Part shown: piece by piece, positions 4,040 to 63,952 of the stretch | How the letters are laid out: each line of letters opens with the position of its first letter | Numbering within the stretch: the first letter of the stretch is position 1 | Source of the DNA: Mesotaenium endlicherianum | Taxonomy: Eukaryota | Direction of reading: 5' to 3' | DNA length: 64,000 nt | NCBI GenBank assembly: GCA_009602735.1 | Contig: WELA01001939.1 | Span: 636,579-700,578 of the forward strand | Program-made: the position numbers and the translations under genes | Notes under the pieces: generated by a model | The model's input: the letters and a program-made list of their open reading frames with translations, nothing else | Databases searched by the model: none | Told to the model about the DNA's origin: nothing

Positions 4040-4559
4040 TGTAGTGATTTAAGTTATAATATATTAATTTGCAAATATTTTAATGCTTTTGAATATATTT
4101 GGAGTAGTATTGTGTGGAGTCAAGTGTGAATAGATACTCTAGTGACGTGGTTCATGTCTTTGAACCTTCTAAGGCATTTTCGAAGTTAGAGGAAAGACCT
4201 ACAAGAACTCCATGTGGCAAAAGTCAAATGTGCCATTTTTAGGTCAAAAGGACATGTGTACATTATTCTAGAAAGAGGTGGCAAGTTTTGGGATGTGTTG
4301 GGTGCCAACACATCAACATGCACCTTCCTAGAGATTACTTATGTAGCAAGTATATAAACAAGAGCCAGAACATAGAAAGACATGGGAGAATCACTCTTGT
4401 ACTTGCCAAATTCCAGAAATATATTAACTTCCAAGAAGCTACCACTTGTGTTCAAAGATCCTTGTCTTGAATAGATAAAGTATTATATTTCACTAAGTAC
4501 TTTATCTATCTGTTTCACTACAGTGGTATCAAAGCTAGGCACTTTGGTAGCACAAGAAG

Positions 4560-20736: not shown

Positions 20737-21453
20737 TGTAATGAATCAGTATATTAGTGGATATAATATTCATTTAAATCTAATAGTTAATTAAGTTCAG
20801 CCTGCTGAACTTTAGTTAATAATCAGTCTGCTGGACTTTACATAATTATCAGTTTAATGACTCGGCCGAAAGCAGCAGGCTGAAGTCAACTTAAGTCAGC
20901 TTGCTGACACATTCTTTGACAGCCAGCTGACTTCCGTGCTCGGTAGCAGCGAACTGCCTTGATATGCATCTAAGTACGACATGCTAGATGAATGGCCAGA
21001 TGACATCCCTATGATGGATGGCTATTCGGGATGATGGGAGATGGCGGTGGATTTGGTTAACCGAGGTCCTACCAACGTGGTTAACTCCCGGGTAGGCGGT
21101 GCCATTGCACTAGCCGTTGAACAGTAAACTCATTCCATGTACATATGCAAGAATTGCTCCCGAGTTCGGCATTCGGAAACAAGGCCAACTCTCTTGTACA
21201 GCTTACTGAGAGGGATCTGAATCCAAGGCGAGAAGCCATTGATACGCACTGTCTTCCAACCTTGCTTATGTATGAGTTTACTGATTTGCATTATTGATGC
21301 TAGTTTACTCGCATTTGACTTACGAGTATTATTCACTGCTAGTGTGTTGNCCTTTGCCGAAAACCAGTTAACGGAAATACCATAAAGATTACTTGCTGAT
21401 ATAAAGATCTTTATTAATCGTTAATCGCCTATTTGGTAAGTCGATTCGTTTCA
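20737..21453 (+). repeat. 5' LTR of the intact family-A element
   Basis: Direct repeat of 28809-29528. Confidence 0.95.
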
Positions 21454-21454
21454 G

Positions 21455-21466
21455 TGGTATCGGAGC
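21455..21466 (+). promoter_or_regulatory. Primer-binding site, tRNA-iMet type
   Basis: TGGTATCGGAGC one base after the 5' LTR. Confidence 0.88.
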
Positions 21467-21487
21467 AGTTATCACAGTCTTCTTTGT

Positions 21488-22966
21488 ATGGTAAGGACAA
21501 GGTCTCAAACTAGCAACTCCCGAGACATGGAGAACCAGGATAACGAGAATGTCAAAAACCAGGCGGAAAGCCATGTAGCGGGAAACCGTACCTATTCGGA
21601 AGCAGTAGCGGATACTGCAGCTAGGGAGGCTGCAGATGAGGCAGCTGCTATTGCCTCAGTCGCAGCTCAGCAAGCTGAGGAGGAGATAGCCAGACTAGAA
21701 GCTGAACAAGTAGCAAAGGCCGCTGAAGATATACAAAGGAGGGAAGGACAGCCAGCTGACGAGCGCACTGTTGAAGAACTTATGGCATCAAGGGCCAATG
21801 TTCTGAACCCACCTCCTGCCGTACAACTCAATGTACCCCTAGGTCAAATACGTGACCGGCTGAATGCGGCAGGAATTGCTGCTGCAGGAGCGAGAGGGAT
21901 TGTTGAGGACACTACTCAGCGAGTAGATGCCAATGCTGCTGCTGCATTTGCTAATCTACCACCCCAAAATGTAGACTTGGGAGCATTGTTCGTTCAGATG
22001 CAGTCGCAAATGGCGACCATGTATCAGTCCCAGCAGGAGGACAAAAGAATCATAATGTCCCTACTCCGGGACAGAGACCAACTGGGGTCTCACACCACTA
22101 GTGGTGGTGGCCGAGGGCCTAGTAAGCCCAAGCCGAAACCTCCCCAGGACTATGATCCTGAGGGAAACAGAAAATATTACCTGATCAAGTTTCTCGCGGA
22201 TGTTGAGCAGTGGCTGGAGAACTACCCAGAACTGCAAGATTACGAGAAGGTCAGGCACACCGGTGCGCTACTGAAAGGCAGTGCCGCAGACTGGTGGCTT
22301 TACTGGAAGGAAGAGCGTAAGGCTCGGCAACTCGGTGACCCTACGTGGGTAGAGTTTGTCGAGAAGTTGCATGAGAAGTTTGATGTCATCAACCAGCAGG
22401 AGAAAGCTATCTATGCGATGATCTCCCTGACACTGAAGCAGACCACTTCAGTTGCTGAGTTTGCTCAAAAGTTCCAAGAGAACATGATGAAGCAGCCTGA
22501 TTTGCCAGAACGGTATAGGATAGCATACTTCAGGTATGGCTTGAAATCCGAGGTCTCTGGTCATTTTGCTGAGAAAAAGTATGAGAAACTGGCTGACTTG
22601 ATCCAGGATGCTGACGCCTGGGATCAGCAGCAGTTCAATCACAAGCGCCAGAGTAACGCTTTGGTGTCTAAGATTGTCAAAAAGCCCCACGGTTCCTACA
22701 ATGCAGTTGAAGGAGACCAGGCTGAGGATAATCAGGGTGATGAATATGAGTATGAGGACAATGCTATTCAGTCTAGAGGTAGAGGTGGTCCCCCTCGAGG
22801 TGGCTATGGAAGGGGTGGTGGTAGGACTAAGCCGAGACCAGCCTCAGCAAAATCTACTTGCTACCATTGTCAGCAGAAAGGCCACTACAGAGAACAGTGT
22901 CCGGTCAAGCACCTGCCTAAGGTCGAGAGAAAAGACCAGCCTTTAAAAGACAGCAACAGTCAGTAA
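21488..22966 (+). CDS. gag: Gag, 492 aa, with retrotransposon gag core and CCHC zinc knuckle
   Basis: LKGSAADWW...TWVEFVEKL core; RGG tract; [14 protein letters not shown] knuckle. Confidence 0.93.
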
Positions 22967-25900
22967 TCCAGTCTACTGACTGTGAGGATGCTAGAGATAG
23001 TGAGTCGTCACTAGCTGCCCTCGTAGCAGGTATTATGGGTCCTGCTGAACTGGATTCACTATGCATGCCTGACAAACAGATAAAGGAGACCATCAGTAAT
23101 ATAGACGTCCAGAGAGTGCACACTCTGGATGCTCTTGTTCCACCTGATGTCCAACATTTCTTTGCTACGTCAGGAGAACAATGCGAAAGTCAGGAAAAGA
23201 CAGTCCCCCCTATCCTACTGCATTGCATGATTGCAGGTAGGAAGGTGAGGGCATTTGTTGACGGAGGGGCGTCACATACTTTTATCCACAAGGACTTAGT
23301 TAAGCGGCTAAGGCTGCCTACTGTCACCCAAGGGAATAGAAAAATATTCCTTGGAGATGCCTCAAGTATCCCGGGAGGAGTTATAACCAAGCCTATTGAG
23401 GTCCAGTTAGGTTCTGGCATTGCAGTTCTAACTGAAACGCTTACATTTGAGGTACTCAACACTGGCTTTTATGATCTCGTGCTAGGCAGGTCCTGGCTTA
23501 ATAGACATCAAGCTGAAGTGTGTTGGAGCAGAGGTACAGTTAAAGTGAGAGGAGCCAGTGATGGGCAGACTGACTTGGCACCCACCAGTGCTCTTCCTCT
23601 TGTCCTGTGTGGATGGCAAATGAAGGAAAAGAAGAGGCTTCCAGAAGGATGCAAGTTGCTGAATGCAATGGAGTTCGTCAAAAGCTGGAACCAGAAGGAA
23701 GACAGAATGTTCTGTCTGCTGCTAAGAGAGGTACCTCCTCAACCTGAAGAAGTGGTTGAGAAAAAGGTAAGCCCTCCGGAGCACCCTACTGCTGCAAAAA
23801 TTGTTGCTCAGTACACTGATGTGTTTAACATGCCTCCAGGACTACCCCCTAAAAGGGAAGTAGATCATAGGATTGATCTATTACCTGGTAGCCAGCCACC
23901 CTGGCAACGCACTTATGGCTTGTCTTATTTGGAGAGCGAGGAGTTGAAAACACAGATTGCAGAGCTGGAGGAAAATGGTTACATTTCTCCCAGTAAATCA
24001 CCGTACGGCGCACCTATCCTATTTGTTAAGAAAAAGGATGGCAGTATGCGGATGTGTGTGGATTACAGAGCCCTGAACAGAATTACAGTAAAGAACAAGT
24101 ATGCTTTACCCAGAATCGAGGACTTGCTTGATACCCTGTCTGGCGCTAAGGTGTTCAGTAAGATAGATCTCAAGAGTGGTTATCATCAAATCAGAATTGC
24201 TGAGGGGGATGAACACAAGACTGCTTTCCGCACACGTTATGGACACTATGAGTTCAACGTGATGCCATTTGGACTGACTAATGCTCCTGCTACCTTTATG
24301 GGTGCTATGAATGACATTTTCAGACCTTATTTGGATAAGTTTGTGCAAGTTTTCCTGGATGATATTTTAATTTTCTCTAAAGATGAAGCTCAGCACACTG
24401 AACACTTAAAGAAAGTGCTGGACACTCTGCGGAAAAATCACTTGTATGCTAAAATGAGCAAGTGTGATTTCTTTAAGGAAAGTATTGAATTCTTAGGCCA
24501 CGTTGTCAGTAAAGAGGGCATCAGTGTGGATCCTAAGAAAGTCCAGACCATAAGGGACTGGCCAGTACCACAGTCTGTCTCTGAAGTTAGATCCTTCCTC
24601 GGGTTGGCTAACTACTATAGGAGATTTATTGAGAATTATTCCACAAAGGCCAGTAAACTGACTGACCTTACTAAGAAAGACATCGGGTATGTGTGGGGGG
24701 AAGAGCAGCAGGCTGCCTTCCAGACCCTTAAAGATGCCCTTTGTTCTGCCCCAGTGCTAGCCGTGTATGACCCCAGCAAACCGGTGCAGGTGGTTACTGA
24801 TGCCTCTGATTTTGCCATGGGTGCTATTTTGTTGCAGCCTGCTGACAAAACCACAAAGGATGGTAAGGTACGGCAGGAGTGGCATCCTGTGTTGTATGAG
24901 TCTATGAAATTTAATCCAGCGGAGATTAATTACTCAGTGCATGATAAAGAGCTGCTAGCTATCATTCATGTACTCAAACAGTGGAGAGCATACTTACATG
25001 GTAAAGCTTTTAAGGTGATTACAGATCATCTAGCTCTGACCCACTTTCAGAAGAAGTCCAAGCTGTCGAGGAGGGAGAACCGCTGGAGCCAGATGCTGGA
25101 GCAGTTCCAAGTCCAGATCGACTACAAACCAGGGAAGTTGAATCCTGCTGATGCACTCTCTAGAAGACCTGACTTGCAAGAAAGGAACTTTAGTCAGCAT
25201 GCTGTAGATAAAGTCCTGTGTGCACTCACTTCACTAAAGGTGAAAAAGTCCTTCCTTGAACAACTTAGGAAAGCCTACCTTTCTGACCCAACATTTGAGC
25301 CCAGCCCCACTACTGGTGTGTGTCGTGCTACTGCACTCGGGTATAAGCTCAAGGGAGGGGTCTGGGTGACTGAAACCACTTCAGGCAGGCTGAAGCTGGT
25401 CATTCCTAATAACTTGGAAATAAGGTCTCTCTTACTGAGTCAAGCTCATGACAGTCTCCTGGGTGGACATTTGGGGCAGGCCAAAACTGTTGGCAAACTG
25501 GCAAAACATTATCATTGGGAGGGGTTACCCCGGGAGGTCTTGAAATATGTCAAGTCCTGTGACCAGTGTCAGAGAAATAAGTCTCGGCACACACCACCCG
25601 GAGGTCTCTTGCAACCGCTACCCATCCCAGCGGGACGCTGGGAAACTATATCCATGGACTGGGTGGTCTCACTACCAAGAACTGCCAACGGGCATGATTC
25701 AATACTGGTAGTCGTGGATAAACTGACAAAAATGGTCATTTTTATCCCCACAACTGTCAAAGTGACTGCACTCGAAACAGCGAGACAGTTTTACAACCAT
25801 GTAGTATGCCAACATGGGCTCCCTTCTAATATCATCTCAGACAGAGACTCAAAATTCACCTCTAAGTTCTGGAGAGCTTTAATGGGGTTAATGGGAGTCA

Positions 25901-26751
25901 AACAGCTGCTCAGCACAGCAAACCACCCTCAGACTGATGGGCAGACTGAAAGAACTAACCGAGTTCTGCAGGAGGTGCTGAGAGCATATATTAACCAAAA
26001 ACAAGATAATTGGGATGACCTGTTGCCTCAAATTCAGTTTGCGGTCAACAGTGCGGTGCACGCGTCAACGGGCAAAACTCCTTTTGAACTCAGCCTGGGT
26101 AGAGTCCCTAAGTCTCCTCTAGATGTGCTAGGGGAATCTTTAACTCACCCTGAAGGGATTGACAACCCGGTCTCCCTCCAGTTAACTCAGGAGTTTGCTG
26201 ACACCCTGTCAGAAGTCCAACGAAACTTGCACACGGCCCAAGAAAACCAACAAAAATACGCTAATCAACACCGTCGGGAACTGACATTTTCCAAGGGGGA
26301 TTTAGTCAAACTGCATTCTCAGCACCTGTACCTCCCTGGTGTGGTCAAGAAAAAGCTTGGCCCTGTCTGGGTCGGTCCATATTCGGTGGTCCGTCGTGTC
26401 GGTCAGAATGCTTACAAACTGAACATGTCAGCTGAATACAAGGGGCACCCGGTCTTTAATGTCTCCTTCCTGGAACCGTACATCAAAGGTGATACACTGT
26501 TCACAGGTCGGTTCCCTGTCCAACCGGGACCGGTCCCCGCTGTCCGGGACGGCGACCCTGAGGAATATGAGGTCGATGAGATTTTAGACGCTCGCTCGGT
26601 CCGTCGATCGTCTAAATATGTCATGAAATACCTCATTCGATGGAAGGGTTACGATGCCTCTGGGGACACTTGGGAGTTTAAGGACCACTTGACCAATGCC
26701 AAAGGGGCGTTGACACGGTTCCACCTTCGGGCCGCTGGAGTCCCTCCATAA
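22921..26751 (+). CDS. pol: Pol (protease, RT, RNase H, integrase, chromodomain); frame opens at 22921, first ATG 23035, -1 relative to gag
   Basis: [41 protein letters not shown]...CDQC, ISMDWV...SDRD...QTERTN, WVGPY, YEVDEIL...YLIRWKGY. Confidence 0.96.
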
Positions 26752-43187: not shown

Positions 43188-44829
43188 GTCCAGACTCTGT
43201 CATAATGAAATGCAGGGCGCTTTTAGGGCGTTGTCTCCTTGTTATAGCTGTTTCTAGAGCGCACTGTGGTCAAGTTTGGTTTGTCTTACCTGAATTAGGT
43301 CACAAATGGGGCCGGCTACAGCCCCCCTTTGAACAACGGACAAAGTTTCTCATCTGCGTCGCTAATAACTGGCTATAACCCTGTTTGAACCATGGAAATG
43401 TCGTTGTTTTTCTGTCTACCTTGTATCTTTTCGAGGCCGGCTGCAGCTCTTGGGGACATGGATAGTTGAAACTTGGCTATGCAACACTCTTTCAACCACT
43501 TGCGACCCAGGTGGGACGCTGGCCTTGGATCGAGACATCATCAGCGGTCAGTGAATTTCGCGAGGCTTGGAAAACCCTAATGGCCTGCTGGCTGCCTCCA
43601 GTTACCTGCTATATGGGCGTATTTCTTACTTTAGGTAAGCTCTCAAAAGCACACGTACACTCTACGCAACCTCGCAATGAGGTGTGCATCGTAGCGCAGG
43701 AACCGTAGACTGCCGTAGACTGTTTGTGGGCTTTAGACAGTCCATTTTACACACAAGTCTCAGAGGAGCTCATCGCTAGTCATCATCTCTGCAGCATCTG
43801 AAGTCACATCTTCAGCGCGTGCCAACTGGTGCCAACACAACCCGCGAATTTCAGCGCCAGCAGCGTAGAGTCGCCCGGAGCAGCCGACGCCTGCCTCAAC
43901 CTGCATGCCCAGCCGTGCCTGCTATATGGCCAGCTTTGGCCATCTACTTCACACGCACCGAGGCTGGAAAAACTTGCAGAGCCGGCTTGAAACTTTCCTA
44001 TCAAACAAACGAGCTAGGGTCGTTGTCGCGTTCGCATGCCCAGGCGACAATCCGGAGAAAGGTCGCCAAATTGTGAGACAGCACTCCATAGCACTTCAGA
44101 GCATACAAAGGTCGTTTCCAACCTTCATAACGCCCGCCATATCTCAAACTACTGCTGCACAGCTCTACACCGGTTTGCGCCGCCTCTTTTAGTTATTCAT
44201 CTACAAAGCTTGTAGCGTCCGATTGTCTGGTTTCTTTCCAAAGTTGAACTGTATTCGCTACATCGAATTTTGAAGACGCCTTTGGATTTACCCAACCAGC
44301 ACCCTTAAAAAGGTACTTACTCTTCCTTGGAAGTAGACCAAGAAGATTTGTAGCAATTGAACTTCCAGCAGGTACGTTGTAGCTATCGTTGTCCCTGGGT
44401 TGTGCTTTCATGAACTATTTATGGTGCTAGGGTTTCTGTTGACCGCGGAGTTTGAACTTTGGAGCTATTTATTTTGTCCTGACCATGGTTGCAAGATTAC
44501 GAGTGTAACTTGATGCCGTGTCGTTATTGATGTTCGAAAACACCGCGACTTACTTTCCCCTAATGCTTTGACATTTGGCCTCCTCTTCCGCCATGTCCAT
44601 GTTCTGCTTCCAGGAGGCAAACAACCTGTTATCTGATCCTGGTCTTTATAATTGGTTCTCGGTTTGTTTGTGTACTCCGACAATGCCCATTACTCCTGCT
44701 AACATTGGGCGACTTTGTTGAAGTAGGGGTACTTGGTTTGCTGCTAAAACTGTTGGTGTGGTGATACAGCTAGAAAGTGGCAAAAGTTTGTTTGCTAACT
44801 ATCTTGTGCTTGATTGGTTGCAGACCTGA

Positions 44830-44838
44830 ATGATATAA
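44830..44838 (+). promoter_or_regulatory. SAMDC-type tiny uORF (ATG ATA TAA) overlapping the small-uORF start by one base
   Basis: ATGATATAATG directly after a TTGCAG acceptor at 44823, the known plant AdoMetDC leader arrangement. Confidence 0.9.
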
Positions 44839-45303
44839 TGGAGCCAAAGTCTTCAAATTCCAGTAGTAATTCCAGGCAATACGAGAAATCCCTTGGTTAC
44901 GTAACAGAGGACGTGCGCCCCTGCGGTGGAGTTGACTTCTTCCGTTCCGCTGCTTACTCTAACGTACGTATAAACTTCGTTGGTTGCTGGGGTGACTTCT
45001 ATATGTCTTCGAATAATGCCTGGTACTGCATGAGTTGCAGCTGTTAGGTGTGCATCTTACAACGTGCTCGCTATATCAAGCTCAAAAATTGTCGGGATGT
45101 TCAATAGGGTGGTTCCCTACAGAGTGAGTACGCATTACTGTCACCAATTTGCGGACAGGCCATAGTGAGCATCTTTTGGTGTGACATGTTTATGAAGGCT
45201 ATTCTGCCCTCCTGGTTTCAAGAACCTGCCAAATTCTCTGGTCTAATTCTTTGACTTGTTTTCAATGCTTGTGCTGCTGCAGTGCGTCCGCAAGCCATCC
45301 TGA
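44838..45303 (+). CDS. SAMDC conserved small uORF peptide, 48 aa; join(44838..44963,45283..45303)
   Basis: MEPKSSNSSSNSRQYEKSLGYVTEDVRPCGGVDFFRSAAYSN|CVRKPS*; matches the plant AdoMetDC leader peptide pattern (LGY..EDVRP.GG...FRSAAYSNC.RKPS); GT-AG intron 44964-45282. Confidence 0.93.
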
Positions 45304-45446
45304 TACGGTACGGGCGTTTATGTTACACGGTTAGGCAGATTAAGTATTAGATATCTTTAGATTTTAGTCACTAGCCTTAGGCCCCTAGAGAGCCCGATCT
45401 TAGCCACGCAGCATCTCAGCTTGCGCTCTTCAAGACAGTTGCAACC

Positions 45447-48420
45447 ATGGCCCCAGAAATTGGAGCTGGAGCTCCCCCCTCTCTCCCATGCCCTGGGTTC
45501 GAAGGCTTTGAGAAGCGTCTGGAGGTGGAGTTCTCTCTGCCTGCCCGTGCAGGCCTCCTGACATCTGTCCAGATGGTTGATGCCACTGGCCTCCGTGGAA
45601 TCCCGCGCTCTGAGCTTGACACCATGCTCACTGCAGCCCAGTGCACCATTGTCTCTCAGCTCTCCAACGAGCACTTTGACTCGTATGTCCTTTCCGAGTC
45701 CAGCCTCTTTGTCTACCCAACCAAGGTTGTCATCAAGACATGTGGCACCACCAGGCTGCTGCAGGCGATTCCGGAGCTTCTGGACTCGGCCGCGCGCCTC
45801 AACATGGTTGCCCGCCGCTGCAAGTACACCCGGGGCACATTCATGTTCCCCCAGGTGCAGCCTGCACCACATGGAAGCTTCTCGGACGAGGTGAAGACCC
45901 TGGAGGAGCACTTCGGCCACCTGGGAGGTGGTGGGAAGGCGTACGTGATGGGAGACATGACCAAGTTCCCCAACTGGCACATCTATGTGGCTGACGCCGA
46001 GGGGCTGTCCCGGCTGGAGGAGCCCACCTACACTCTGGAGATGTGCATGACGAAGCTTGACAAGGTGGCTGCTGGGCAATTCTTCCAGGATGCGGGCTTT
46101 GCCAATGCCAAGGCAGTCACAAAGGCCTCTGGAATCTCTGGGCTCCTTCCTGGCTCCCAGATCGACGACTTCAGCTTCGAGCCCTGCGGGTACTCGATGA
46201 ACTCCATCGAGATGAACGCCCACTCCACCATCCACATCACCCCGGAGGACGGGTTCAGCTACGCCAGCTTCGAGACCATGGGGTACGGCAACGCTGAGCT
46301 GGAGCTGGGAGAGCTTGTCAAGAAGGTGGCCGCTGTGTTCAAGCCCGGCTGCTTCTCCCTGGCCGTGCATGCCAACGGCCCAGTGGGAGTGAAGGGAGCA
46401 GGCGCTTGGGGCGGGGTGCTTCCCTCCTTTGAGGGGTACTCGTGCGAGGGGACCAACAAGCAGGAGCTCCCCTTTGGCAGCGCGACTGTGTTCCACACTT
46501 ACAAGGCAAACGAGGCTGCCTTTGGACTGGAGTCTGTGGCACCCCTGCCCCTCTTCGAGGCTGCGCAGCAGAAGGCAGCTCCAGCCATGGCTGTGGACCA
46601 GGTGGTGCCTGTGGTGGAGAAGCAGGCTGCAGAGTCGAAGCCCGCGGGAAGGAGGCCCATGTTCCATGCGCAGCCCGTACTGGAGACCACTCTAGAGTTT
46701 GGCCCGGACGCGGCCGCAGTGATGGCTGCCTTCAACGCCAGCCTGGTGGGGACCACGAGCAGCGATATGGATGCATGCATCCGCAAGCAGGTTACGAGCA
46801 CCGGGGCCGAAGAGCCCTTTTACGTGATGGACTTGGGGGTGGTTCTGCGCCTGTGGAAGACGTGGACGTCCGCCATGCCGCGCGTGCAGCCCTTCTACGC
46901 CGTCAAGTGCAACCCCGACCCCGCCCTCCTGTCCCTGCTGGCGGCCCTTGGGGCTGGTTTCGACGTGGCCAGCAAGTCGGAGATCACAGCGGTCGTGACG
47001 CGTGGCGTCAGCAGCGAGCGCATGATCTACGCCAACCCCTGCAAGCTGCCCTCGCACATCACCGCCGCGGCCAAGGATGGCGTGCTGCGGACCACCTTTG
47101 ACTCGGAGTCAGAGCTCGTCAAGTTGAAGAAGTACCACCCGGGCGCGCACGCGGTGCTGCGCCTGCGCGCCGATGACCGCGGCGCGCGCTGCCCCCTGGG
47201 CGTGAAGTACGGCGCCGAGCTGGAGGAGTGCGAGCACCTCCTCAAGGTGGCGCAGTCTCTGGGCATCCATGTGGCGGGCGTGGCCTTCCACGTGGGCAGT
47301 GGCGCTGCGGACTCCCAGTCGTACACGGACGGCATCGAGACGGTGCGCTCGCTCTTTGACATGGCGGAGGCCCTCGGCATGGCCCCCATGACCCTGCTGG
47401 ACATCGGCGGCGGCTTCACGTCCAAGGGCGGCAGCGGCATGGGCTTTGCGCAGGCGGCCACGGCGATCAACGAGGCGCTCGACGAGTACTTCCCCGAGAG
47501 CATGGGTGTGCAGATCATTGGCGAGCCCGGGCGGTTCTTTGCGGAGGCGCCCTCCACGCTGGCGACGCACGTGTTTGGCACGCGCTTCCGCGGCAAGGGC
47601 CACGCCCGCAAGGCGGAGTACTGGATCAACGACGGCATATACGGCTCGATGAACTGCCTGCTCTACGACCACGCAGAGCTCACTGCCCGGCCCCTCATGG
47701 TGGCCTCGGCCGGGGCTGGCGCGAAGGGTGGCGCGTCGTGGCTGTCGCAGAAGATGCTGCCATCGACCATCTTTGGCCCCACCTGCGACGGCCTGGACAC
47801 TGTGCTGCGCGATGTGTGCCTGCCCCAGCTGGAGTGCGGTGACTGGCTGGTGCGTGCCGTTCTCTGCTCTGCTTGTTTGTGCCTGGGGTTGGTGCTGCTG
47901 AGTTGGTGCATTATGCATACTTTTTTTCCCTGTTGAGCTGGTCAGAGATGAAGAGGACTTGCCTTTCAGTTGTAGCTGCGGAGTATTGAACAGGATTGCT
48001 GCTTTGCATCTGGTTGCAGTGAAAGCTGCCACGGCAGCTTCTTATGGTATGAATGCTGGTTGGGATGTAGTGTGCGGTGATGTTCTGTGTTTACTGTGAC
48101 TTATGTGAGCATTTTTTTGTGGATTGCAGGTGTTTCCTCGCATGGGAGCATACACTCAGGCAGCTGGGACGAGCTTCAACGGCTTTGACACCAAGGACAT
48201 TCGCACTGTGTATGTCTACTCAAGCATGAATGCATACGACGAGGATCTGTCGTGTCTCGATGAGCCTGAAGGGGTGGACATTGAGTACAATGACAGTTCT
48301 TCCGACACATGCGAGGAGATCTGTGCTGACATGTATGGCACTGGCTCAGACACTTTTGAGGGTGTGTCATCCTTTGAGCGGGGCGAATCTTCAAGTGGCA
48401 GTGATGATGACAATTTCTGA
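45447..48420 (+). CDS. SAMDC-ODC: Bifunctional S-adenosylmethionine decarboxylase / ornithine decarboxylase fusion, ~897 aa; join(45447..47849,48130..48420)
   Basis: SAMDC: GFEGFEKRLE, YVLSESSLF, KTCGTT, FEPCGYSMN, TIHITPEDGFSYASFE. ODC: PFYAVKCN, YANPCK, FHVGSG, LDIGGGF, EPGRFFA, NDGIYGS..LYDHA, FGPTCDGLD, and GDWL|VFPRMGAYT restored by splicing 47850-48129. Confidence 0.95.
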
Positions 48421-50245: not shown

Positions 50246-52395
50246 TCAACTGTCGTCACCGTCGGTGCTCATATCCCAAAAGGCCACTTCGAGGCGCAGC
50301 ACTTTCAGAAACGCCTCCTTCGCCTCCACAAACACCCCCCGGCTGCACCCTCGCTCGCGCTCGCCCTCTTGCCCGCGCGCGGCAGCTCCCTCCAGCGCGC
50401 GCTGGGCGGTAACCCCGAGCAGAGAGCAGTAGCTCGCAAACTCGGGGTTGCCCCACCGCTGGCAGCACTCCTGGAGGTCCGCTGGCGTGTGGGCCCCCCT
50501 CTCGGTGCAGCGGGACCACGCCTCGCAGTACACGAGCTCCACGGCCCACAGCGCTGTCAGGGCCACCTCGTACGGCACGGCGGGCCCACTGAGCTCCTCC
50601 AGGTACCTGCTCGTTGCATGCCGAGGAGAGACAGGTAAGAGGTGACAAGCCCCGGAGCCATGAAACCGATTGACAAGCGTCAGCAAAACTGTCGACCACC
50701 CTCCGCAAGACCGCTGCCGCCGGCCCCGGTGCCAACCCACTTTAGCAAACCCGCAGACTGGTGTCATCAAGCCCGTGGACCGATGTTAGCAAAACCTCAA
50801 GCTTCAAGGAATAAGGTTTGTGTTTCTCAGGATGCTGTCAGTGAGTGACGTCGCCACAAGTGGAGCACGGGTACACGCATGCGGGCCTGGAGGCTGAGCT
50901 GCCATCACGTAGCAGAGGAGTACTGCGCACGCACGCGGCTTTCCAGCTGGCCATGCCGCTTGCCAGCTGGCCATGCAGCTTGCCAGATGGCAATGACACG
51001 ACATCAGGGCATGGTACGACAGCGCATGATATCACGGCACGATAAGTCATGGGGCATGCGCCACACTGGCAGCCCTGTTCTGCAAATAAGAAAAACAAAA
51101 AAAACAAAGAGCACATCTTGGCAGCCACGGTGCTGTTTCTAGGCGTGAGGAAGAAGACGAAACTAGGGACTGGGGCCGGAATTGTATGGTCTCGCGGACC
51201 ATCCATCTGCATGATGTGCATCAAAGGGAAGGAAAACGCGTAGGGGGTTTACAACTGCAGCCCATACAACACTTGCTCCCTCCCTCTGCTGGAGCCCGCC
51301 TGCGGCCGCACAGGGGACAGGTGGCGCGCGACCACACCCCAGCTTTTGAGAGCGCCTCAGAGAAGGTCTAAGACAAAAGTCCGATATCTGAACAGAAGCA
51401 CACTCATCCTCTGCCTGCCAGTTGTTTTGCGTTTATGTACAGCACTTCCTTCCCTCTGCTGGTCTAGCAGTTCGTTCTAGAGCTACAGGACAAGTTTTGG
51501 GATACCTGTGTGGTGTGTGAGTGAGAGGGAAGCATGCCTTAGCAGATACTCAGGATCCCGTTCTGCTGTGAGGTACTACTTTGAGCCAGCTGCAGTTTAG
51601 CATCACTCATAACTTCCAATTTTCCGGAGTGGGTGAGGGGCGAGAGGCGAGGGGTTGGTTGAGGGGGCCTGGCCCTGCACCTCTGGAAATGCAACTAGAA
51701 TCTTCAGATTTGAGAACGACTAAGCTGCGCACCATTTGGAACGAGTGTGGAGACTGCAGAATGAGATCCCGTGGCAAAGTACCCACCTCATGTACCAGAC
51801 GTTAGCCTCCAGGGGCTGCAGCCCCGCCAGCTGGACCCCACGCTTGGATGCCAACTCCTTGAACCACTTCAGCTCCGCATCGAGGGCAGAGAGGCTCCCA
51901 AGGAGAACCTCGAAGTCGCCAGGTGGCGACGTGCTCGTGGCCCCGGCATCGTCGTAGTTCTTCTGGGGAAGCTTCAGGAGGGTGCTGGCCACGAAGCGGA
52001 CTAAGGATCTCACAAAGAGGTAGTCTTGAGCCTGCAGTCCACCGAGCAACTTACGCTCGTGTCAAGCTCATAGAAACCCCGAGCGGCGGATGTGACAGTG
52101 AGGTTTACACTCTGGTAGAAAGACACTGTCTCGCCAGACAGATTTTATTAGGATATATTTCCACATCATAGGAATTACTGCAATTAAGCTGATATGACCT
52201 GAGGCTGTAAAAGGCGTGCAACAGGTGGCAGCAGAAGTATATGCCTACCAGCCATCTATCAAATTGTTTCGTTGACACTGTTCCCCCTCGCACAGACTCG
52301 AGGAAAGGGTGCCTGATGGCCCTTGAATAGTCTACTCCATGATGAGATAACCACTGCAAGATGGACGGCGCCGATCCTTCCTGGCCTGCCATCAT
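50246..52395 (-). CDS. TENA_E: TenA/THI-4 family thiamine-salvage protein, TENA_E type; exons 52395-52249, 52031-51787, 50606-50246
   Basis: AIRHPFL...FDRWL|AQDYLFV...ELKWF...R|YLEEL...LWAVELVY...RWGN...LEVAFWDMS; GT-AG junctions are phase-compatible. Confidence 0.88.
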
Positions 52396-53394
52396 GTCCT
52401 TTGATTGCCCGGTCTCCTGGTCGGTCCTCGCCTCTTGACCTCCTGCGTGCACGAGTTTGCAACCCTATGAAGCACTGTGGAATTTGCTCTGCAAGGAGCG
52501 AATGTCCAATGGAAAAAGCTACCACGCCATGCACATTCTGCAAGCGCGCAGCATGAAGCTAAATGAAGCAGAACACTATACTTATCTCCTGCCAATGTCT
52601 GGTCTCTAGGCGAATATGCTTCCTTCGCTCTCATTCCGCCAGTAAGTCGGACATCCGCCACGTGAATGAAGCAGCATTAGGAGAACGCTTTCGGCCACTT
52701 TCGGCTGTCTTTTGGCATCGTTGACTATCCTCACCAATCCTCACAAACGTTCTCAACTTATTGCTCACACTCGCACGCAGCTTGCACGCATTACCACGTT
52801 TTGAACGAATTGAAGTCTCTGAATGGGTCTGGGAGAGTCGGTCGGGGCTCTTCGCATGCCAGCACACACCAGCTCACAGCGCTAAGGAGCCTTTAAACGC
52901 TTCTTGATTTGGTGAAGGTCGCAAGCACTTCATGCAACAGTTATGACGTGGCCCGGAACTTTCAACTGTTTTGATTCGTGAACTATGCAGTGATTATTTT
53001 CCTGCAACTTATTCAGCTGCAGTTGTTGATGTAAATCATGGTAAAGCGGCTTGTCGTTAGATTATAGTTCCAAAAAGTACAAATTATGTACTTCGTTTTT
53101 CACCTTTTGCTTCATACGAGTATAGCGAGAGTACTTCCACGATGTATTATTATTCATGACACCTAAGTCGCTGGACAAAATAAGTCCAGATACTTCAGAT
53201 GCATTCAATACTGAATGCTTCATAACAATTATGCTCAATTTGGTAACTAACGCTATTTACTACAGAACCTGGTCGATATTTTCCATGAATCTCTTCACAT
53301 GCAGGTGCAAAGTGCAAGCTCAACGTCTTATTTAGGTCTTTTATGCCTCTCCACTTTCCTGCATGAGGGGGGGGAGGGGGGGCGAGATGAGGGA

Positions 53395-54138
53395 NNNNNN
53401 NNNNNNNNNNNNNNNNNNNNNNNNNNNNNNNNNNNNNNNNNNNNNNNNNNNNNNNNNNNNNNNNNNNNNNNNNNNNNNNNNNNNNNNNNNNNNNNNNNNN
53501 NNNNNNNNNNNNNNNNNNNNNNNNNNNNNNNNNNNNNNNNNNNNNNNNNNNNNNNNNNNNNNNNNNNNNNNNNNNNNNNNNNNNNNNNNNNNNNNNNNNN
53601 NNNNNNNNNNNNNNNNNNNNNNNNNNNNNNNNNNNNNNNNNNNNNNNNNNNNNNNNNNNNNNNNNNNNNNNNNNNNNNNNNNNNNNNNNNNNNNNNNNNN
53701 NNNNNNNNNNNNNNNNNNNNNNNNNNNNNNNNNNNNNNNNNNNNNNNNNNNNNNNNNNNNNNNNNNNNNNNNNNNNNNNNNNNNNNNNNNNNNNNNNNNN
53801 NNNNNNNNNNNNNNNNNNNNNNNNNNNNNNNNNNNNNNNNNNNNNNNNNNNNNNNNNNNNNNNNNNNNNNNNNNNNNNNNNNNNNNNNNNNNNNNNNNNN
53901 NNNNNNNNNNNNNNNNNNNNNNNNNNNNNNNNNNNNNNNNNNNNNNNNNNNNNNNNNNNNNNNNNNNNNNNNNNNNNNNNNNNNNNNNNNNNNNNNNNNN
54001 NNNNNNNNNNNNNNNNNNNNNNNNNNNNNNNNNNNNNNNNNNNNNNNNNNNNNNNNNNNNNNNNNNNNNNNNNNNNNNNNNNNNNNNNNNNNNNNNNNNN
54101 NNNNNNNNNNNNNNNNNNNNNNNNNNNNNNNNNNNNNN
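53395..54138. other. Assembly gap, 744 N, flanked by poly-G tracts
   Basis: Run of N. Confidence 0.99.
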
Positions 54139-55600: not shown

Positions 55601-57462
55601 CTACTGTCCAGGGACACCAACAGGTCCACCAATTGTCTTGAAAGATTCGTGTATGTGCCGCAATTTGGCCTCATCTCTGCACCCACACGATCACAAACTT
55701 CCTTAGTACAGGAAAGGAAGTTGGCAAGAGGTTTAGCAGGACTTGTTGCACAGGTGTGCAGCTTGCTGTTCTTAAGAATGTCACCCAGACAGCACGAACA
55801 GGCATGCACAGTAGACACCAGCCCCCTCAGCAAGAAAGACTCTGGAACAGCATCCACAAGAGTACTTCTTTGCTCTTTGCACAATTTAGATGCTCAATGC
55901 CAAACCCCGCATAACCTAAAAAACAATGCACCAAATTTGCAAGTACACAAGCCCATGCCTTTCCTTCATCTCCCTCCGTCCTTCTATGCGAGATTAATGG
56001 AGAACCTCTCATAAGCCCGCCCCTTTGGCCTGCTCATATGACTAAGATTTGAGCCCAAATTCAAGACTATTACTTCTGCCATTGCATATGTCATGAATAG
56101 CTCATATGGATAGCTCATACCTGGCCCAGTCAGAAACAGGGGAGTTCACGAAGTGCGAGTAGAGCTTATTTTTAGTGCATGTGACTGCGATCAGACTGTG
56201 GCCCACAGGGCTGTCAATCTCAAAGTCGTAGTACGTCTGTCCATTGGCGTCCGTCCTCTCGGATTGTATGATGTCGTCCGCACTTCCGATTTGGTCCTGC
56301 ATTCCACGTAACCAGGAAAGGTTTGGCATACTCTCCAGAAAAAAGCTCCAAGAATCAATAATGAGCACCTAGAACGTGAAAAATGTCAAGACTTCAGGCA
56401 ACATAAATTAGACAATGACTGGAAAGAGGACTCAAGGTCAGCAAACAACAGAGAGAACGTATGCAGTGGATTTTCTGGACATTTTTCAGATAGTCAAAGG
56501 CAGGGTCTAACACAGGCTTAGAAACATACTCCAACGTGCCCCATTCATCTGTCCTCTACTAAGGTGATATAAAAGGTGAACATAGGTGTCGATATATATA
56601 TATGCTCCACCTTATATTCCAGGAAGCTTTTGCACTGACGTGACAAGCACTAGAGCCTCTCACCTGGAGATTGACATCAGAGAGCGCAAGGTTGCTGAGA
56701 ACATTCTCTTGAGGAGGAAGCCTCCTAAAACCTGCGCGTTTATACATTATCAGAATACAGTCCTTGACCACATATGCACGCAGACAGATTCGCTATTGTG
56801 CAGGACAAGACAGAAACCTGGCCCCAGAGGAATGCAGTTCTTGACATCAGTCAAAGGATCACGTAAAGGTTGAGAAGCAATGCTCCTATCCAACTGACAT
56901 ATTTCAAATATAAATCTACTTTCAAACCTCCAAAATAGCTAAATAGCCCTAAGAACACAGATAACTTACCTGCAAGGTAGGTAAGGTACACCTTCTCCGT
57001 CTTCTTCTTAGGATTGTAGAACTCGCTATCTGTGCCATTGGTGCCTTTCTCTACTTTAGAGATTTGCCTCTCCTTCCAGTTTGTAGGAAAGTCGTATACA
57101 TACTCAGCTGAATCCTGCTTGTTTGAGTTCCCTCCATATCCACCGTAGCTGGAAGCACTAGCTGCTGTGCCATAATAAACATCGAATTCGTCGTCTGCAA
57201 ATGCTGGAAGATTTCCCGACCCTAACACTAGTGTCACTGCAGTAGCTAAAGTTACAGCTCCACGCCCTACAGACCTCCACAAGTCCACCCTGGACTCACC
57301 CTTGCTGCTTGCTATGCATCTTAACCTGGGAAACGCCTTCAGAGTCGTTCCTTGGCACTGATAAGCTGCTCGCGAAAATGTTTTGTCAGCTCTAGAAGCG
57401 CATGAGCTTAAGCCATGTACACCTAAACACGATAGACTTGACGAAACAACCTGAGCCGCCAT
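55601..57462 (-). CDS. PPD4: PsbP domain-containing thylakoid lumen protein, PPD4-like; exons 57462-56970, 56731-56664, 56296-56121, 55676-55601
   Basis: Transit peptide ending PAFA; YYGTAASASSYGGYGGN...WKERQISKVEKGTNGTDSEFYNPKK...LSNLALSDV...HSLIAVTC.KNKLYSHFV...LRHIHESFKTI; GT-AG phases are consistent. Confidence 0.9.
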
Positions 57463-58490
57463 CAAATGCTGAAGTGAGCTCAGGAAAACGTCGAAATCCA
57501 CGTGCTCGAGGAACTTGCTTATGGGTAACCTGTCGCTCCAATGTATACAGAAGAAAGTCTGTACTATGTTAGCATTTGATGCAGAAGCTTACACCACACA
57601 GCACCCTTGCACCTTCACGTTCATTTAGTTTCTCCCAGCATTTACGAATCTCGTTTTATAGCAATACGCCACCGTGGCAAACAAGATATCAACGGATACG
57701 ATAGGGCAAGACTCAGAGCTCGGAACTGCTTGGAACTTGTTGGAACTGCTTGTCGAACAATTTAGCAGGAACAAGTGGGAACACGGCCTGCTAACTACTG
57801 CGAACTGCTGCAAACAGCCTGCAAAGGCCTGCATGTAGTGTGCTTGGGGTGTGCCACAGTGTGCCATGTCATGTGGATGAGGTCTTCCAGAAGTCAAACT
57901 GCAGGAGAGGACGTCAATAGGATGCATCAGGATGGATAACGGCGACCATTGACGAACTTAGGTCACTAAATAGGAATTTAACCTCCTGTCGCCAACCGAC
58001 GCCGGTATCGGGAAGACTTTGAGCTGCTTTGCGCGCCATTGGTATACATGTGCCAAGATGTGCTTGGATTTGCCGCGCTGACTTAGTCTTTGCGGGAGTA
58101 TATGTATCAGTATAAGAGTATATATAAATATCGCTCGAGGTCGTTTACTTGGGGCTACCATGCGCTGCTATGCGCTATTAAATGTTTCATGGATACATGC
58201 AGATGCATACAAGCATACAAAAGCATACACCCTAGTCCTATACCACCATCAAGTGGCAGTTATGGTTACATGTCCAGCATGTCACTCCATTGTTTTTTGG
58301 CCACACTTTACTCCACTTCAATCCATTGTCCTCTGTGTTCTACAGCTGAATTGACATTTGGTACGCTACATTGTGCTGTTGATGTAGAGCTGACCTCTAA
58401 ATTCCTAGTTGGGCAAAATGTAGAGAATGCATGAAAGAGGAAAGTAAGTTGACAAGGTGAGGCTGCTCGACGGAGCACACACTATACGAT

Positions 58491-61005: not shown

Positions 61006-63952
61006 TCAGAAGCGCCCCCCCCGTCCCCCTCTCCACCCCCCTCTCCCTCGCCCCCTGCCCCTCCCCCTCCCCCGCCTGTCGTACTGGCCACTCCCGTACT
61101 CCCCAGCAGTTGCGCTTTCCTCGTCGGCAGAGCCGAAGTTGAACATGCTCTGCTTTAGCTGCTCTGCGGCGCTCAAAGGCCTGCTCCCTCCCGCCTGCGC
61201 AGAAATGCAACAAAAAGATCAGGAAAGGGGGCAGCACAACGATCACTCACTCGGCGGCGCCAACACGAAGCCCTCCTCGCGCTTCGGCCGCATTCGAGCT
61301 CGTGCTGGCACAGCCAGCCTCAGCACGGTGGGCGGCCTTCTGTGGCATGAAGCTCTCTCGGCAGCGGCAAGACAGGCTTGCCCTGCCGCCCTGGCAAAGC
61401 GAACCTTTGCCTGATGATGCAAAGGTGAACACTCACTGTAACTGCGACCAGCGCAGCGAGCAGAGAGCCTCCCCCTCTTGCCGGGGCCTGACGCCAGCCA
61501 AGTGGGAGGGCGGCAGCCCTGGAAAGTGCGTGCCTAAGCCCTTGAGCTGCAGGACCAGAGCTTAAATTTGAGAAGCCTACCGCACTTGATAGGACTTGAA
61601 AGCACCTGAGAGTTTAGACCTAAGACTTTATTTCAAGTACTCGGGACCCACGCCTTTGGACCTAAACTGTTGGGACCTGAAGTGTTGGGACCTAAAGTGG
61701 TGGAATATAACCCTTCAAGACCTAAGCCTTGGGACCTTGGAGGCTCGAGGAGGGCGAGAGAATAGAGGGGCCTGTCTCCCGCCCTTGCCAGCAGCGCCCG
61801 CGCAGCGCACGCAGCTGCGGGGGGGCAACCCGGAGCCCCGCCACCTCCGAGGCGACAGCTCACAGGGGCTTCAAGGTATAATCAACCTTGCGCGCAAGCA
61901 CATTGCTGAGGCGGCACCAATGCATGCGCACATCTCCAGAAACTTGAACTCCAAACCCTATATCCACAGATCCGTAAACCCCAAGCCCCCAGCCCGGCGC
62001 TCCTAGTATCTACAAGACCCTAGCCCCACAACCCCGGCCTCGCAGCCCTGGCCCCCAGTCCCTGGCCCCACACTTGCACAAAGCCCTTGTCGTGAGCCCC
62101 CCCCAGCCCCTAACAGTTGGCCCAACGCTGGAGAGGGGAGGAGAACCGTCCGCATTCGCACCAGAGCGTCCTCCATGTCGAGCTCCCGCTGGAGCTGCCA
62201 AGCGAGCTCCTCGTCCGACACGAGCTCATTCCAGCTGGCATTATCACCACCACCTCCAGCACCAGCACCAGCAGCAGCACCAGCAGCAGCAGCAGCAGCA
62301 GCAGAATGCAGCCCTTGCGCATCCCCTGGAGCGGCACTCGGCCCAGTTGCGCCTCCCCCGCCAGCCGCCCGGGCGGCCTGCCGGGCTTCCCACTCGTCCA
62401 GAGTTATGCCCTCAGGCTCCTCCTCCTCCCCCCTCTTCCCCCGGCCCCTCCCGCGCCTGGCCGCCCACGGCGCGCGTGCGCGCTCGCGCTCGGGGTTGAG
62501 CCTGCGCTCCAGAAGCTTCTGAGCAGCTGCCTTGTTCTGCGGAGGAGGAGGAGGAGAAGGAGCAACCCCCGCCGTTGCCGCCGCCCCCGCCGCTGCTTCC
62601 CGCACAGCCTGGTGCCTGGCCTCGTCCGCGCCCGCGCCCTTGCGCTCTCCGACTCCGCCAGCTGTGCCGATGCCAGCTGTACCGCCACCGCCGCCATCGG
62701 CGCAGCGGCCCTCTGCACCGCTGCCAGCTGCGCCACCTTCGCCGTTGCTGCTGCTAGCTGTGCCCCCGCCGACGTTCCGCCTGCTGCCGGCATCGCCGCT
62801 GCTGCCTCCGTCGTGCCTGCTGCTGCCGTTGTCGCGCCTGCTGGCGCTGTCGCTGCTCCCGGCATCACAGCTGGCCCTCCCAACGGCAGCGTCGGTGGCA
62901 GCCTGCGCACTGCCGGTAGCAGCCACCCTCCCTGTGGCAGGCGCAGCTGGCAGCCCCCCAGGGGCAGCTGCAGCAGCAGCAGCGGCGGGAGTGGACGGAG
63001 GAAGTGGAGAGGAGCTAGCACCGCTGCCATATCTCTCGTCCGTTGCACGTTCCTCCCGCGTGTCAGCAGCAGCGCCTCCTAGCAATGGAGCGCGGGCCCC
63101 ATCAGCCCCCTCAGGTCTTGCTTCTGCATCCTTCCCACCATCGCGGCCCCCCTCCTTCCCCCCCGCCCCCCGCGCTCTCAGCCGGTATGGCTCTGCCCCG
63201 GGCCGCACCCGCACTGCAGGCTTGGGCACCTTCTGCAAGGGCACCCCCTCCCCAGGCTGAGGCCCGGGCTCTCCCAATGTAGGTGATGCGTTGCTGGCCT
63301 GCTCCCCTCGCCCCTTACTGTGCTGACGCCGTGACACGCCGGGCTGGGAGGCAGCAGCAGCAGCAGCAGGCGAGGAGGAGGAGGAGGCGGAGGAGGAAGA
63401 AGCAGCAGCTGCTGCTGCCATCCCTCCCGCCCCGGCTGGGGTGAGGTCCCCGCAGGGCATTGGGATTTTCCCGCGCTGCCCACCCTCACTTCTCCCCTGG
63501 GGCGAGCTAAGCTTCCCCATGCTGGGGGCCACCATGCGTCCAGCTGGCGCGTGCACAGCTGGCGCATGGTGCACAGGTGGCGCCTGGCGCTTGGCAGCAG
63601 GGCGGGGATGAGCGCCGCTAGTTCCAGCAGCAGGTGGAGAGCTGCTCCTCTCGTCCCACCCTCCCCCCCCTTTCTTGGCAGCAGAGCCAACTCCAGCTGT
63701 CGCCCCGGCGCTCTCTTCCTCCTCGCCCCCTGCAGGGTCTATTGAGACACCTACAAAGGGCGGGGGCCCCGAGTTGCCACTTGGCAGCGCGCCGGGGGAG
63801 GAGCCTGCCAGCACAGCCCTGGAGAATACCGCGCGCTTCCGGTCCGTCTCCCAGGCCTCGACAAGTGGCCCCACCCTGCCGCCCAGGACTCTGACGTTCT
63901 AGTTGTCCAGTAAGATGATGCCGCTTCGCACCGTCGCATCCGTGAGCTCCAC
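61006..63952 (-). CDS. 3' part of an RMI1/TDRD3-like OB-fold (DUF1767-type) protein gene with C-terminal RGG box; exons ~63952-62162 and 61194-61006; in-frame TAG at 63901-63899
   Basis: VRSGIILLDN*NVRVLGGRVGPLVEAW resembles the OB-fold end; ITLDEWEARQ, DEELAWQLQRELDMED, AEQLKQSMFNF and RGRGRGRGGWRGGRGGRF* resemble the plant TDRD3-like C-terminus. Confidence 0.7.

Follow-up and report, generated by a model that had tools for sequence, protein, structure and literature searches.

A SAMDC-ODC fusion gene behind a plant-type pair of upstream open reading frames in Mesotaenium endlicherianum: probable joint control of two decarboxylases and a likely origin of land-plant SAMDC by loss of ODC

How did an ornithine decarboxylase (ODC) come to be encoded behind the leader of a plant S-adenosylmethionine decarboxylase (SAMDC) gene, and can this leader control both enzymes? 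The question is raised by a locus in a 64,000-nt stretch of contig WELA01001939.1 of Mesotaenium endlicherianum (the window, within which all feature positions are counted), where one main open reading frame encodes SAMDC fused to ODC and is preceded by two overlapping upstream open reading frames (uORFs), the tiny and the small uORF. A first-pass annotation of this DNA had proposed that one polyamine switch now controls the supply of both putrescine and decarboxylated S-adenosylmethionine (dcAdoMet), and that ODC was appended to a resident SAMDC gene in this lineage. We consider it probable that the fusion stands under polyamine-dependent repression likely to limit both enzymes, in a layout likely inherited from the green-plant ancestor, and that the stand-alone SAMDCs of land plants likely arose by loss of ODC.

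Splicing and the transcription start of the gene, which lies on the plus strand, were inferred from the sequence. The tiny uORF (44830..44838) has two codons, Met-Ile-stop (ATG ATA TAA), and overlaps the small uORF by one base: the last A of its stop codon is the A of the small-uORF ATG at 44838. By sequence context the tiny AUG is weak (T at -3, A at +4) and the small AUG is strong (A at -3, G at +4). Exon 1 of the small uORF (44838..44963, 42 codons) matches the AdoMetDC_leader family PF08132 with 60.2 bits (cut-off 25, E 1.7e-16). A predicted phase-0 intron (44964..45282, GTACGT...TGCAG) interrupts the small uORF six codons before its stop; three neighbouring donor/acceptor choices that were tried lacked GT..AG ends. 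Exon 2 (45283..45303) would supply CVRKPS, with its penultimate proline, and the TGA stop, and the spliced small uORF would thus comprise 48 codons. Overlaps of the type ATG-codon-stop/ATG occur four times in the 64 kb, two per strand, so that an overlap at the head of a Pfam-significant leader peptide is not due to chance. The same one-base layout was present in 47 of 59 loci with a small uORF, the window counted.

The position of the intron within the small uORF appears to be conserved. A search of protein representatives with exon 1 gave 192 matches, and among the best 150 of these 66 had a spliced tail of the C..PS type (26 of them CVRKPS) and 68 continued with Val, which is what reading through the GT donor would give; ten lacked the motif and six ended otherwise. 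Three long matches in several stretches without uORF motif (P0366, P0367, P0508) look like composition artefacts and were set aside. No model combining leader and fusion was among the same best 150 of 192 matches. The overlapping uORF pair and the intron before CVRKPS, both described by the first-pass annotation, were thus borne out.

As the first-pass annotation had noted, an acceptor lies just upstream of the pair: the AG of a predicted leader intron ends at 44823, six bases ahead of the tiny ATG. A branch-like CTAAC stands 29 nt upstream of this acceptor. The intron's two donor candidates also proved to be GT donors, starting at 44313 (AAG/GTACTT) and 44372 (CAG/GTACGT). With the latter the intron would extend from 44372 to 44823 (acceptor TGCAG; alternative donor 44313) and remove nine ATGs, and the candidate non-coding first exon (44037..44371), which would end at this donor, falls in a stretch free of ATG between 44037 and 44409. 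Among 29 unspliced plant loci that have a tiny uORF, 11 likewise carry CAG six bases ahead of it, a count made by eye that includes many near-duplicates.

A TAG-rich spacer of 143 nt (45304..45446) separates the small-uORF stop from the main ATG. It contains a further uORF of four codons (45320..45334) with a weak-context ATG at 45320, which had been overlooked before. A short extra uORF 13-16 nt past the small-uORF stop was found in 4 of 23 leaders (the window, L058, L070 and L072). Over the 23 leaders the 80 nt after the small-uORF stop contain 70 TAG, compared with 42 expected from dinucleotide shuffles, and in the window 7 TAG occur in the 90 nt of 45304-45393. An upstream control stretch of 21 loci had 12 TAG, and TAA or TGA was not enriched after the small-uORF stop. 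The TAG-rich stretch is a possible lead to a third conserved leader element, the loci being related.

The main ATG at 45447 opens a coding sequence (45447-47849 and 48130-48420) for 897 amino acids. Residues 17-352 (45495..46502) form the SAMDC proenzyme domain (PF01536, 354.9 bits), followed by a linker with the N-terminal helices of ODC (46503..46841). Residues 466-801 (46842..47849) make up the pyridoxal phosphate (PLP) barrel and most of the sheet domain of ODC (PF02784, 242 bits; PF00278, 55 bits), and the ODC half matches mouse ODC (7odc) with E 2.6e-100. A phase-0 intron after residue 801 (47850..48129) leads to the last coding exon (48130..48420), which contains the end of ODC with the GAYT motif, an acidic Ser-rich disordered tail and the stop. 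With this intron the protein has the length of its best database match, an 897-aa model with 100% identity across the 801 residues used as query; its label 'jgi/Mesen1' presumably stands for Mesotaenium endlicherianum, a member of the Zygnematophyceae. We rejected the possibility that two genes were joined by mistake in a gene model, as one open frame spans SAMDC into ODC and spliced contigs show the same fusion. In the AlphaFold model (mean pLDDT 82, pTM 0.55) residues 373-407, in the linker, and 837-897 have low confidence; the model depicts both enzymes as folded, loosely tethered to each other and followed by an acidic tail that is disordered. About 50% of the tail (48220-48417) is Asp, Glu, Ser or Thr, and this composition is kept in streptophyte-algal and liverwort fusions; in Selaginella and Adiantum the tail is short. 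The tail is a possible degradation signal.

All 12 catalytic motifs tested were found in the protein. Glu84, Ser85, Cys99, Ser250 and His263 of the SAMDC half align with potato and human SAMDC. Lys487, His615, Glu693, Asp741, Cys780, Asp781 and Tyr809 of the ODC half align with the solved mouse, human and trypanosome ODCs. The PLP lysine, the His, the glycine loop, EPGR, the specificity Asp, Cys-Asp and the Tyr are kept; we take these residues to have the catalytic roles of their counterparts. From PF01536, the Glu-Ser site and the Cys/Ser/His set, the first half appears to be a eukaryotic class 2 pyruvoyl SAMDC of plant type, and the second, by its residue set, a eukaryotic PLP-dependent ODC of fold type III. 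Self-cleavage of SAMDC is predicted at Glu84/Ser85, and the alpha chains in PDB align from residue 86 to their own residue 2. At the putrescine site the alignment places Arg24 and Lys126, and Thr194 instead of human Asp174. This is the plant pattern (basic residues, the human Asp gone), and classic activation of the SAMDC half by putrescine therefore seems unlikely.

The leader might nevertheless control one real activity only, if one half were dead or re-specified (prozyme-like, antizyme-inhibitor-like, or a lysine or arginine decarboxylase). Plant lysine/ornithine decarboxylases are indeed close relatives (P0346), and the repeated loss of the ODC half in land plants, described below, shows that it is dispensable there. 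The complete set of motifs speaks against such a change, as does the Asp retained at the position of mouse Asp332, to which we ascribe a role in ornithine specificity. We regard a dead or altered half as highly improbable, and agree with the first-pass annotation that the locus looks functional.

Similar fusions are widespread in green plants. A length-limited search gave 615 long relatives, and all of the best 120, which were examined, have SAMDC before ODC (PF01536 and PF02784). The named algal ones come from Nephroselmis, Cymbomonas, Crustomastix, Trebouxia, Coccomyxa, Micractinium, Bryopsis, Chlorokybus, Klebsormidium, Coleochaete, Spirogloea, Netrium and Closterium, and those of land plants from Marchantia, Riccia, Calypogeia, Selaginella, Psilotum, Adiantum and Ceratopteris; among these best 120 no seed plant or moss was named. 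One protein labelled as from the amoeba Leptophrys (P0033) adjoins Closterium in the tree and was taken as likely prey-derived, not as a non-green fusion. The fused proteins are already in databases, mostly under one-enzyme or 'hypothetical' names. Three of the 120 models (two of Chlorokybus, one of Closterium) include the PF08132 leader and exit it exactly at the position of the uORF intron. No protein labelled 'Mesen1' was among the best 120 of 2779 short SAMDC matches or the best 120 of 4318 short ODC matches, which is weak evidence.

In a metagenome scan the best 80 of 553 matches were kept as 79 loci. Both domains were present in four of these (L001, L008, L010 and L017), each with an upstream uORF whose penultimate codon is Pro. 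In the spliced contig L001 a 47-codon PF08132 uORF (65.5 bits) lies 165 nt before a full fusion that is 86% identical to a Klebsormidium protein. L010, a spliced contig of chlorophyte type, carries a 45-codon uORF ending in Pro-Ser together with the fusion. Thus in two relatives uORF and fusion occur on one spliced contig. L008 and L017 have a 60-codon uORF with a phase-0 intron six codons before the stop, matching the window in place and phase; they are Micromonas-like by resemblance to a uORF in excerpts of PMC2811004 (Suppl. Fig. 2). The leaders of L001 (1-246; Klebsormidium-like fusion) and L002 (1-216; moss-like stand-alone SAMDC), both without tiny uORF, have a similar short stretch directly before the small AUG.

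What such a leader could do is suggested by land plants, where polyamine-responsive repression by the tiny/small pair is established for SAMDC (PMC2811004, in excerpt), as the first-pass annotation had said. At low polyamine the tiny uORF masks the inhibitory small uORF, and at high polyamine initiation moves to the small uORF and the main ORF is repressed (excerpts of PMC2811004). Translation of the stacked pair has been described for Arabidopsis SAMDC2 (PMC10896292, in part). The spliced leader of the window can carry the same elements: a weak tiny AUG, a strong small uORF ending in Pro-Ser and the main AUG 143 nt further on. By analogy, at low polyamine ribosomes would use the tiny AUG, leave the small AUG masked and reinitiate at the main ORF, whereas at high polyamine the small AUG would be used and its peptide would repress the main ORF. 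Judged by the conserved residues, self-cleavage at Glu84/Ser85 would yield a short beta chain together with a long pyruvoyl alpha chain that bears ODC, and the product would dimerise via ODC. Because both enzymes are in one fused ORF, ODC would be under the same control as SAMDC, and since the halves are loosely tethered, the arrangement would provide 1:1 co-production, not allosteric coupling. As of 2007 no antizyme had been detected in plants (PMC1874602, partial text). If the analogy holds, ODC and SAMDC would probably be made 1:1 and shut off together, which would supply end-product feedback on ODC in a lineage without detected antizyme.

The main rival to such joint feedback, which we consider unlikely, accepts an ancient fusion and assumes that repression by the leader is constitutive or answers to another cue (mRNA decay, general stalling), and that the level of putrescine depends mostly on arginine decarboxylase or on a separate ODC. 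It is the main rival because other routes to putrescine are possible and the tiny uORF is missing in the other fusion loci. Arginine decarboxylase is a second route to putrescine, and stand-alone ODCs coexist with fusions, for instance in Myrmecia. The tiny uORF, on which switching depends in the published model, was absent from all four other fusion loci (in L008 and L017, from the 40-60 nt inspected ahead of the uORF). On the other hand, the window keeps the weak-tiny/strong-small contexts. Furthermore, its small uORF shares the Pro-Ser end with polyamine-responsive uORFs of animal ODC homologues, and systems with a single uORF respond to polyamines too (PMC2811004, in excerpt).

Several further observations weigh against joint control by an inherited leader. 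The polyamine response of the window leader is borrowed from angiosperms by analogy, and among the fusion loci compared the dual switch is seen, by sequence, in the window alone. The one-base-overlap tiny uORF is missing in 12 of the 59 small-uORF loci. The ATG at 45320 could reduce reinitiation. The chlorophyte uORFs of L008 and L010 gave no PF08132 match and score just 41 against the window uORF; shuffled sequences scored 20.4±3.8 and 18.6±3.7, respectively, and none of 1000 reached 41. The proposal that one switch now controls putrescine and dcAdoMet stands in part. The fused ORF lies under the same uORFs, and in L001 and L010 both are on one spliced contig; 'now' does not fit an old fusion, and 'putrescine supply' was overstated, as a second route or a stand-alone ODC is possible.

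Was ODC grafted recently, in this alga, onto a uORF-controlled stand-alone SAMDC? The window leader matches the leader of land-plant stand-alone SAMDCs in detail, which would suit a graft, as would the lack of a tiny uORF in the other four fusion loci. Such a graft is nevertheless very unlikely, because fusions occur in prasinophytes, trebouxiophytes, Chlorokybus, Klebsormidium, Coleochaete, Spirogloea, Netrium, Closterium, liverworts, Selaginella, Psilotum and ferns, because both halves of the window protein cluster with other fused proteins in trees, and because uORF and fusion occur together in chlorophyte-type loci. As a recent event the graft is refuted, and it survives as a single event before green plants diversified: ODC may have joined a uORF-bearing SAMDC once at that time. 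SAMDC uORFs also exist in red algae and diatoms (PMC2811004, in excerpt). The view that ODC was appended in the Mesotaenium lineage had to be given up, since fusions with an upstream uORF occur in chlorophytes as well as in streptophytes and the stand-alone SAMDCs of land plants likely derive from the fusion.

The direction of change was examined with two trees. The SAMDC-domain tree was built from 40 of 120 fused and 30 of 120 stand-alone proteins, picked for named taxa, and the ODC tree from 33 fused and 26 stand-alone proteins. The fused-protein trees of both domains follow green-plant branching. The order in the SAMDC tree is Chlorokybus, Klebsormidium, Chara, a group of Zygnematophyceae plus Coleochaete that includes the window, and land plants. 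Fused and stand-alone SAMDCs are intermixed in the land-plant clade (support 100/98), and the state changes at least seven times on the tree. Monophyly was rejected both for the stand-alone SAMDCs (p-AU 3.8e-9) and for the streptophyte fusions (p-AU 9.4e-11). As fused forms stand on nearly all early branches, Chara excepted, repeated loss of ODC is the simplest reading. In one clade the loss left a trace. Four of the 120 listed stand-alone SAMDCs, all of the liverwort clade and one named Calypogeia, align to the Marchantia fusion as far as the beginning of the linker and match it again at the C-terminal tail, a pattern that indicates an internal deletion of ODC. The tail matches score 77-101, compared with about 30 otherwise, and are significant in just these four. 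No linker remnants were found at E<=0.05 in 240 short proteins. The stand-alone SAMDCs of land plants are thus likely trimmed descendants of the fusion.

Some points count against this history. The trees were rooted on chlorophytes without a non-green outgroup and their rows were chosen by hand. The stand-alone sets were the best 120 matches to a streptophyte query, so an old unfused algal lineage could be missed. Some stand-alone SAMDC models, such as that of Chara (P0136), may be cut gene models. In addition, the stand-alone ODCs of seed plants and Sphagnum form a branch of their own (98/93), which lies outside the clade (100/99) that unites the fusions of Coleochaete, Zygnematophyceae and land plants. 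As they branch apart, a separate streptophyte ODC outside uORF control is old, and the seed-plant ODC is therefore probably not the lost half but an older sister copy. An ODC fragment without start Met (P0241), nested in the fern fusions, was not counted as a fission. A long-branched group of stand-alone ODCs (P0244-P0246, L003:3842-5149) lies within the streptophyte part of the tree; the L003 contig is gene-dense, with ODC beside kinase-like and oxidase-like ORFs, and the group possibly represents a non-plant eukaryote that acquired ODC.

Taken together, we lean slightly towards the following history. The textbook plant SAMDC would be a truncated descendant of a SAMDC-ODC fusion. A Pro-Ser uORF with a fixed intron would have set both decarboxylations since the green-plant ancestor, standing in for antizyme, and the fused gene would have gained the one-base-overlap tiny uORF before the split between Zygnematophyceae and land plants. 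ODC would then have been lost several times (in mosses, in leafy liverworts by internal deletion, in lycophytes, and in the line of ferns and seed plants), and the ODC that remains in seed plants would be a separate one without the leader.

The window shares with the known plant SAMDC circuit (CPuORF homology group 3, PF08132) the one-base overlap, the two-codon tiny uORF, the 48-codon small uORF ending in Pro-Ser, the intron within this uORF and an intronless SAMDC part. It differs in that the main ORF adds a complete ODC and that the host is a streptophyte alga. The introns of the plant uORF pair are in print (PMC5745906, in part), as are AdoMetDC uORFs of the green algae Micromonas, Ostreococcus, Chlorella, Chlamydomonas and Ulva and the SAMDC uORF of Marchantia (excerpts of PMC2811004, with Suppl. 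Fig. 2 for the algae). Like the window, the algal genes have a penultimate-proline uORF upstream of SAMDC; unlike in the window, the tiny uORF is longer or absent (PMC2811004, in excerpt). The available passages of this paper do not state that algal SAMDCs are fused to ODC, their sole mention of a fusion concerning spermine synthase. The same excerpts describe Pro-Ser-ending, polyamine-responsive upstream conserved coding regions in animal and fungal mRNAs for ODC and antizyme inhibitor. As in the window, these uORFs precede an ORF of the ODC family, but they mostly have non-AUG starts and an independent origin, whereas the window ODC is controlled via its fusion to SAMDC.

Two other fusions bear on novelty. 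The bifunctional AdoMetDC/ODC of Plasmodium has SAMDC N-terminal and ODC C-terminal in one chain; it is much longer than the window protein and has inserts. The Plasmodium gene is not known to have a plant-type leader, and its fusion is presumably independent of that of green plants. A SAMDC-ODC fusion of Micromonas was reportedly described by Green et al. in 2011 (Mol Microbiol 81:1109), and some of what we describe may already be contained in this work and in a 2016 JBC review. The Micromonas fusion, from a green alga, is reported to have the domain order seen in the window, and L008 and L017 look to be of this kind. Here, in contrast, the fusion is shown in streptophytes and in land plants, linked with the uORF leader and placed as ancestral to stand-alone SAMDC. 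No literature on a streptophyte or land-plant fusion, its uORF control or a fission origin of plant SAMDC was found in a search that did not extend to most subscription papers, the most relevant included. The plant uORF pair, its introns and green-algal SAMDC uORFs are already known; joint ancestry of uORF and fusion did not appear in the literature searched.

If confirmed, the likely trimming of SAMDC would reverse the history so far assumed for a plant regulatory gene that has been studied intensively, and would provide a clear example of repeated gene fission in which one internal deletion is visible. It would also offer a possible answer to how ODC is checked in the green lineage, where no antizyme was found (PMC1874602, partial text). 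As the fusion is present in the genetic model Marchantia and in Ceratopteris, joint putrescine/spermidine feedback can be tested by editing one start codon. For annotators there is a warning: an annotation as SAMDC can conceal the ODC of algae, liverworts, lycophytes and ferns.

Among the other features of the window, two long open frames on the minus strand (56854-57588 and 62006-63898) had no Pfam match, and an assembly gap of 744 bases lies at 53395-54138. A convergent spliced neighbour on the minus strand (50249-52464) encodes a TENA/THI-4 domain (PF03070, E 1e-5), and a fragment of a protein phosphatase 2C gene (PF00481) occupies 3-1145, also on the minus strand. Copies of Ty3/gypsy-type retrotransposons are present at 21440-26748, about 4550-8500 and 10680-13350. 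The first contains, at 22921-26748, an open pol frame of 1276 amino acids with protease, reverse transcriptase, RNase H, integrase and chromodomain.

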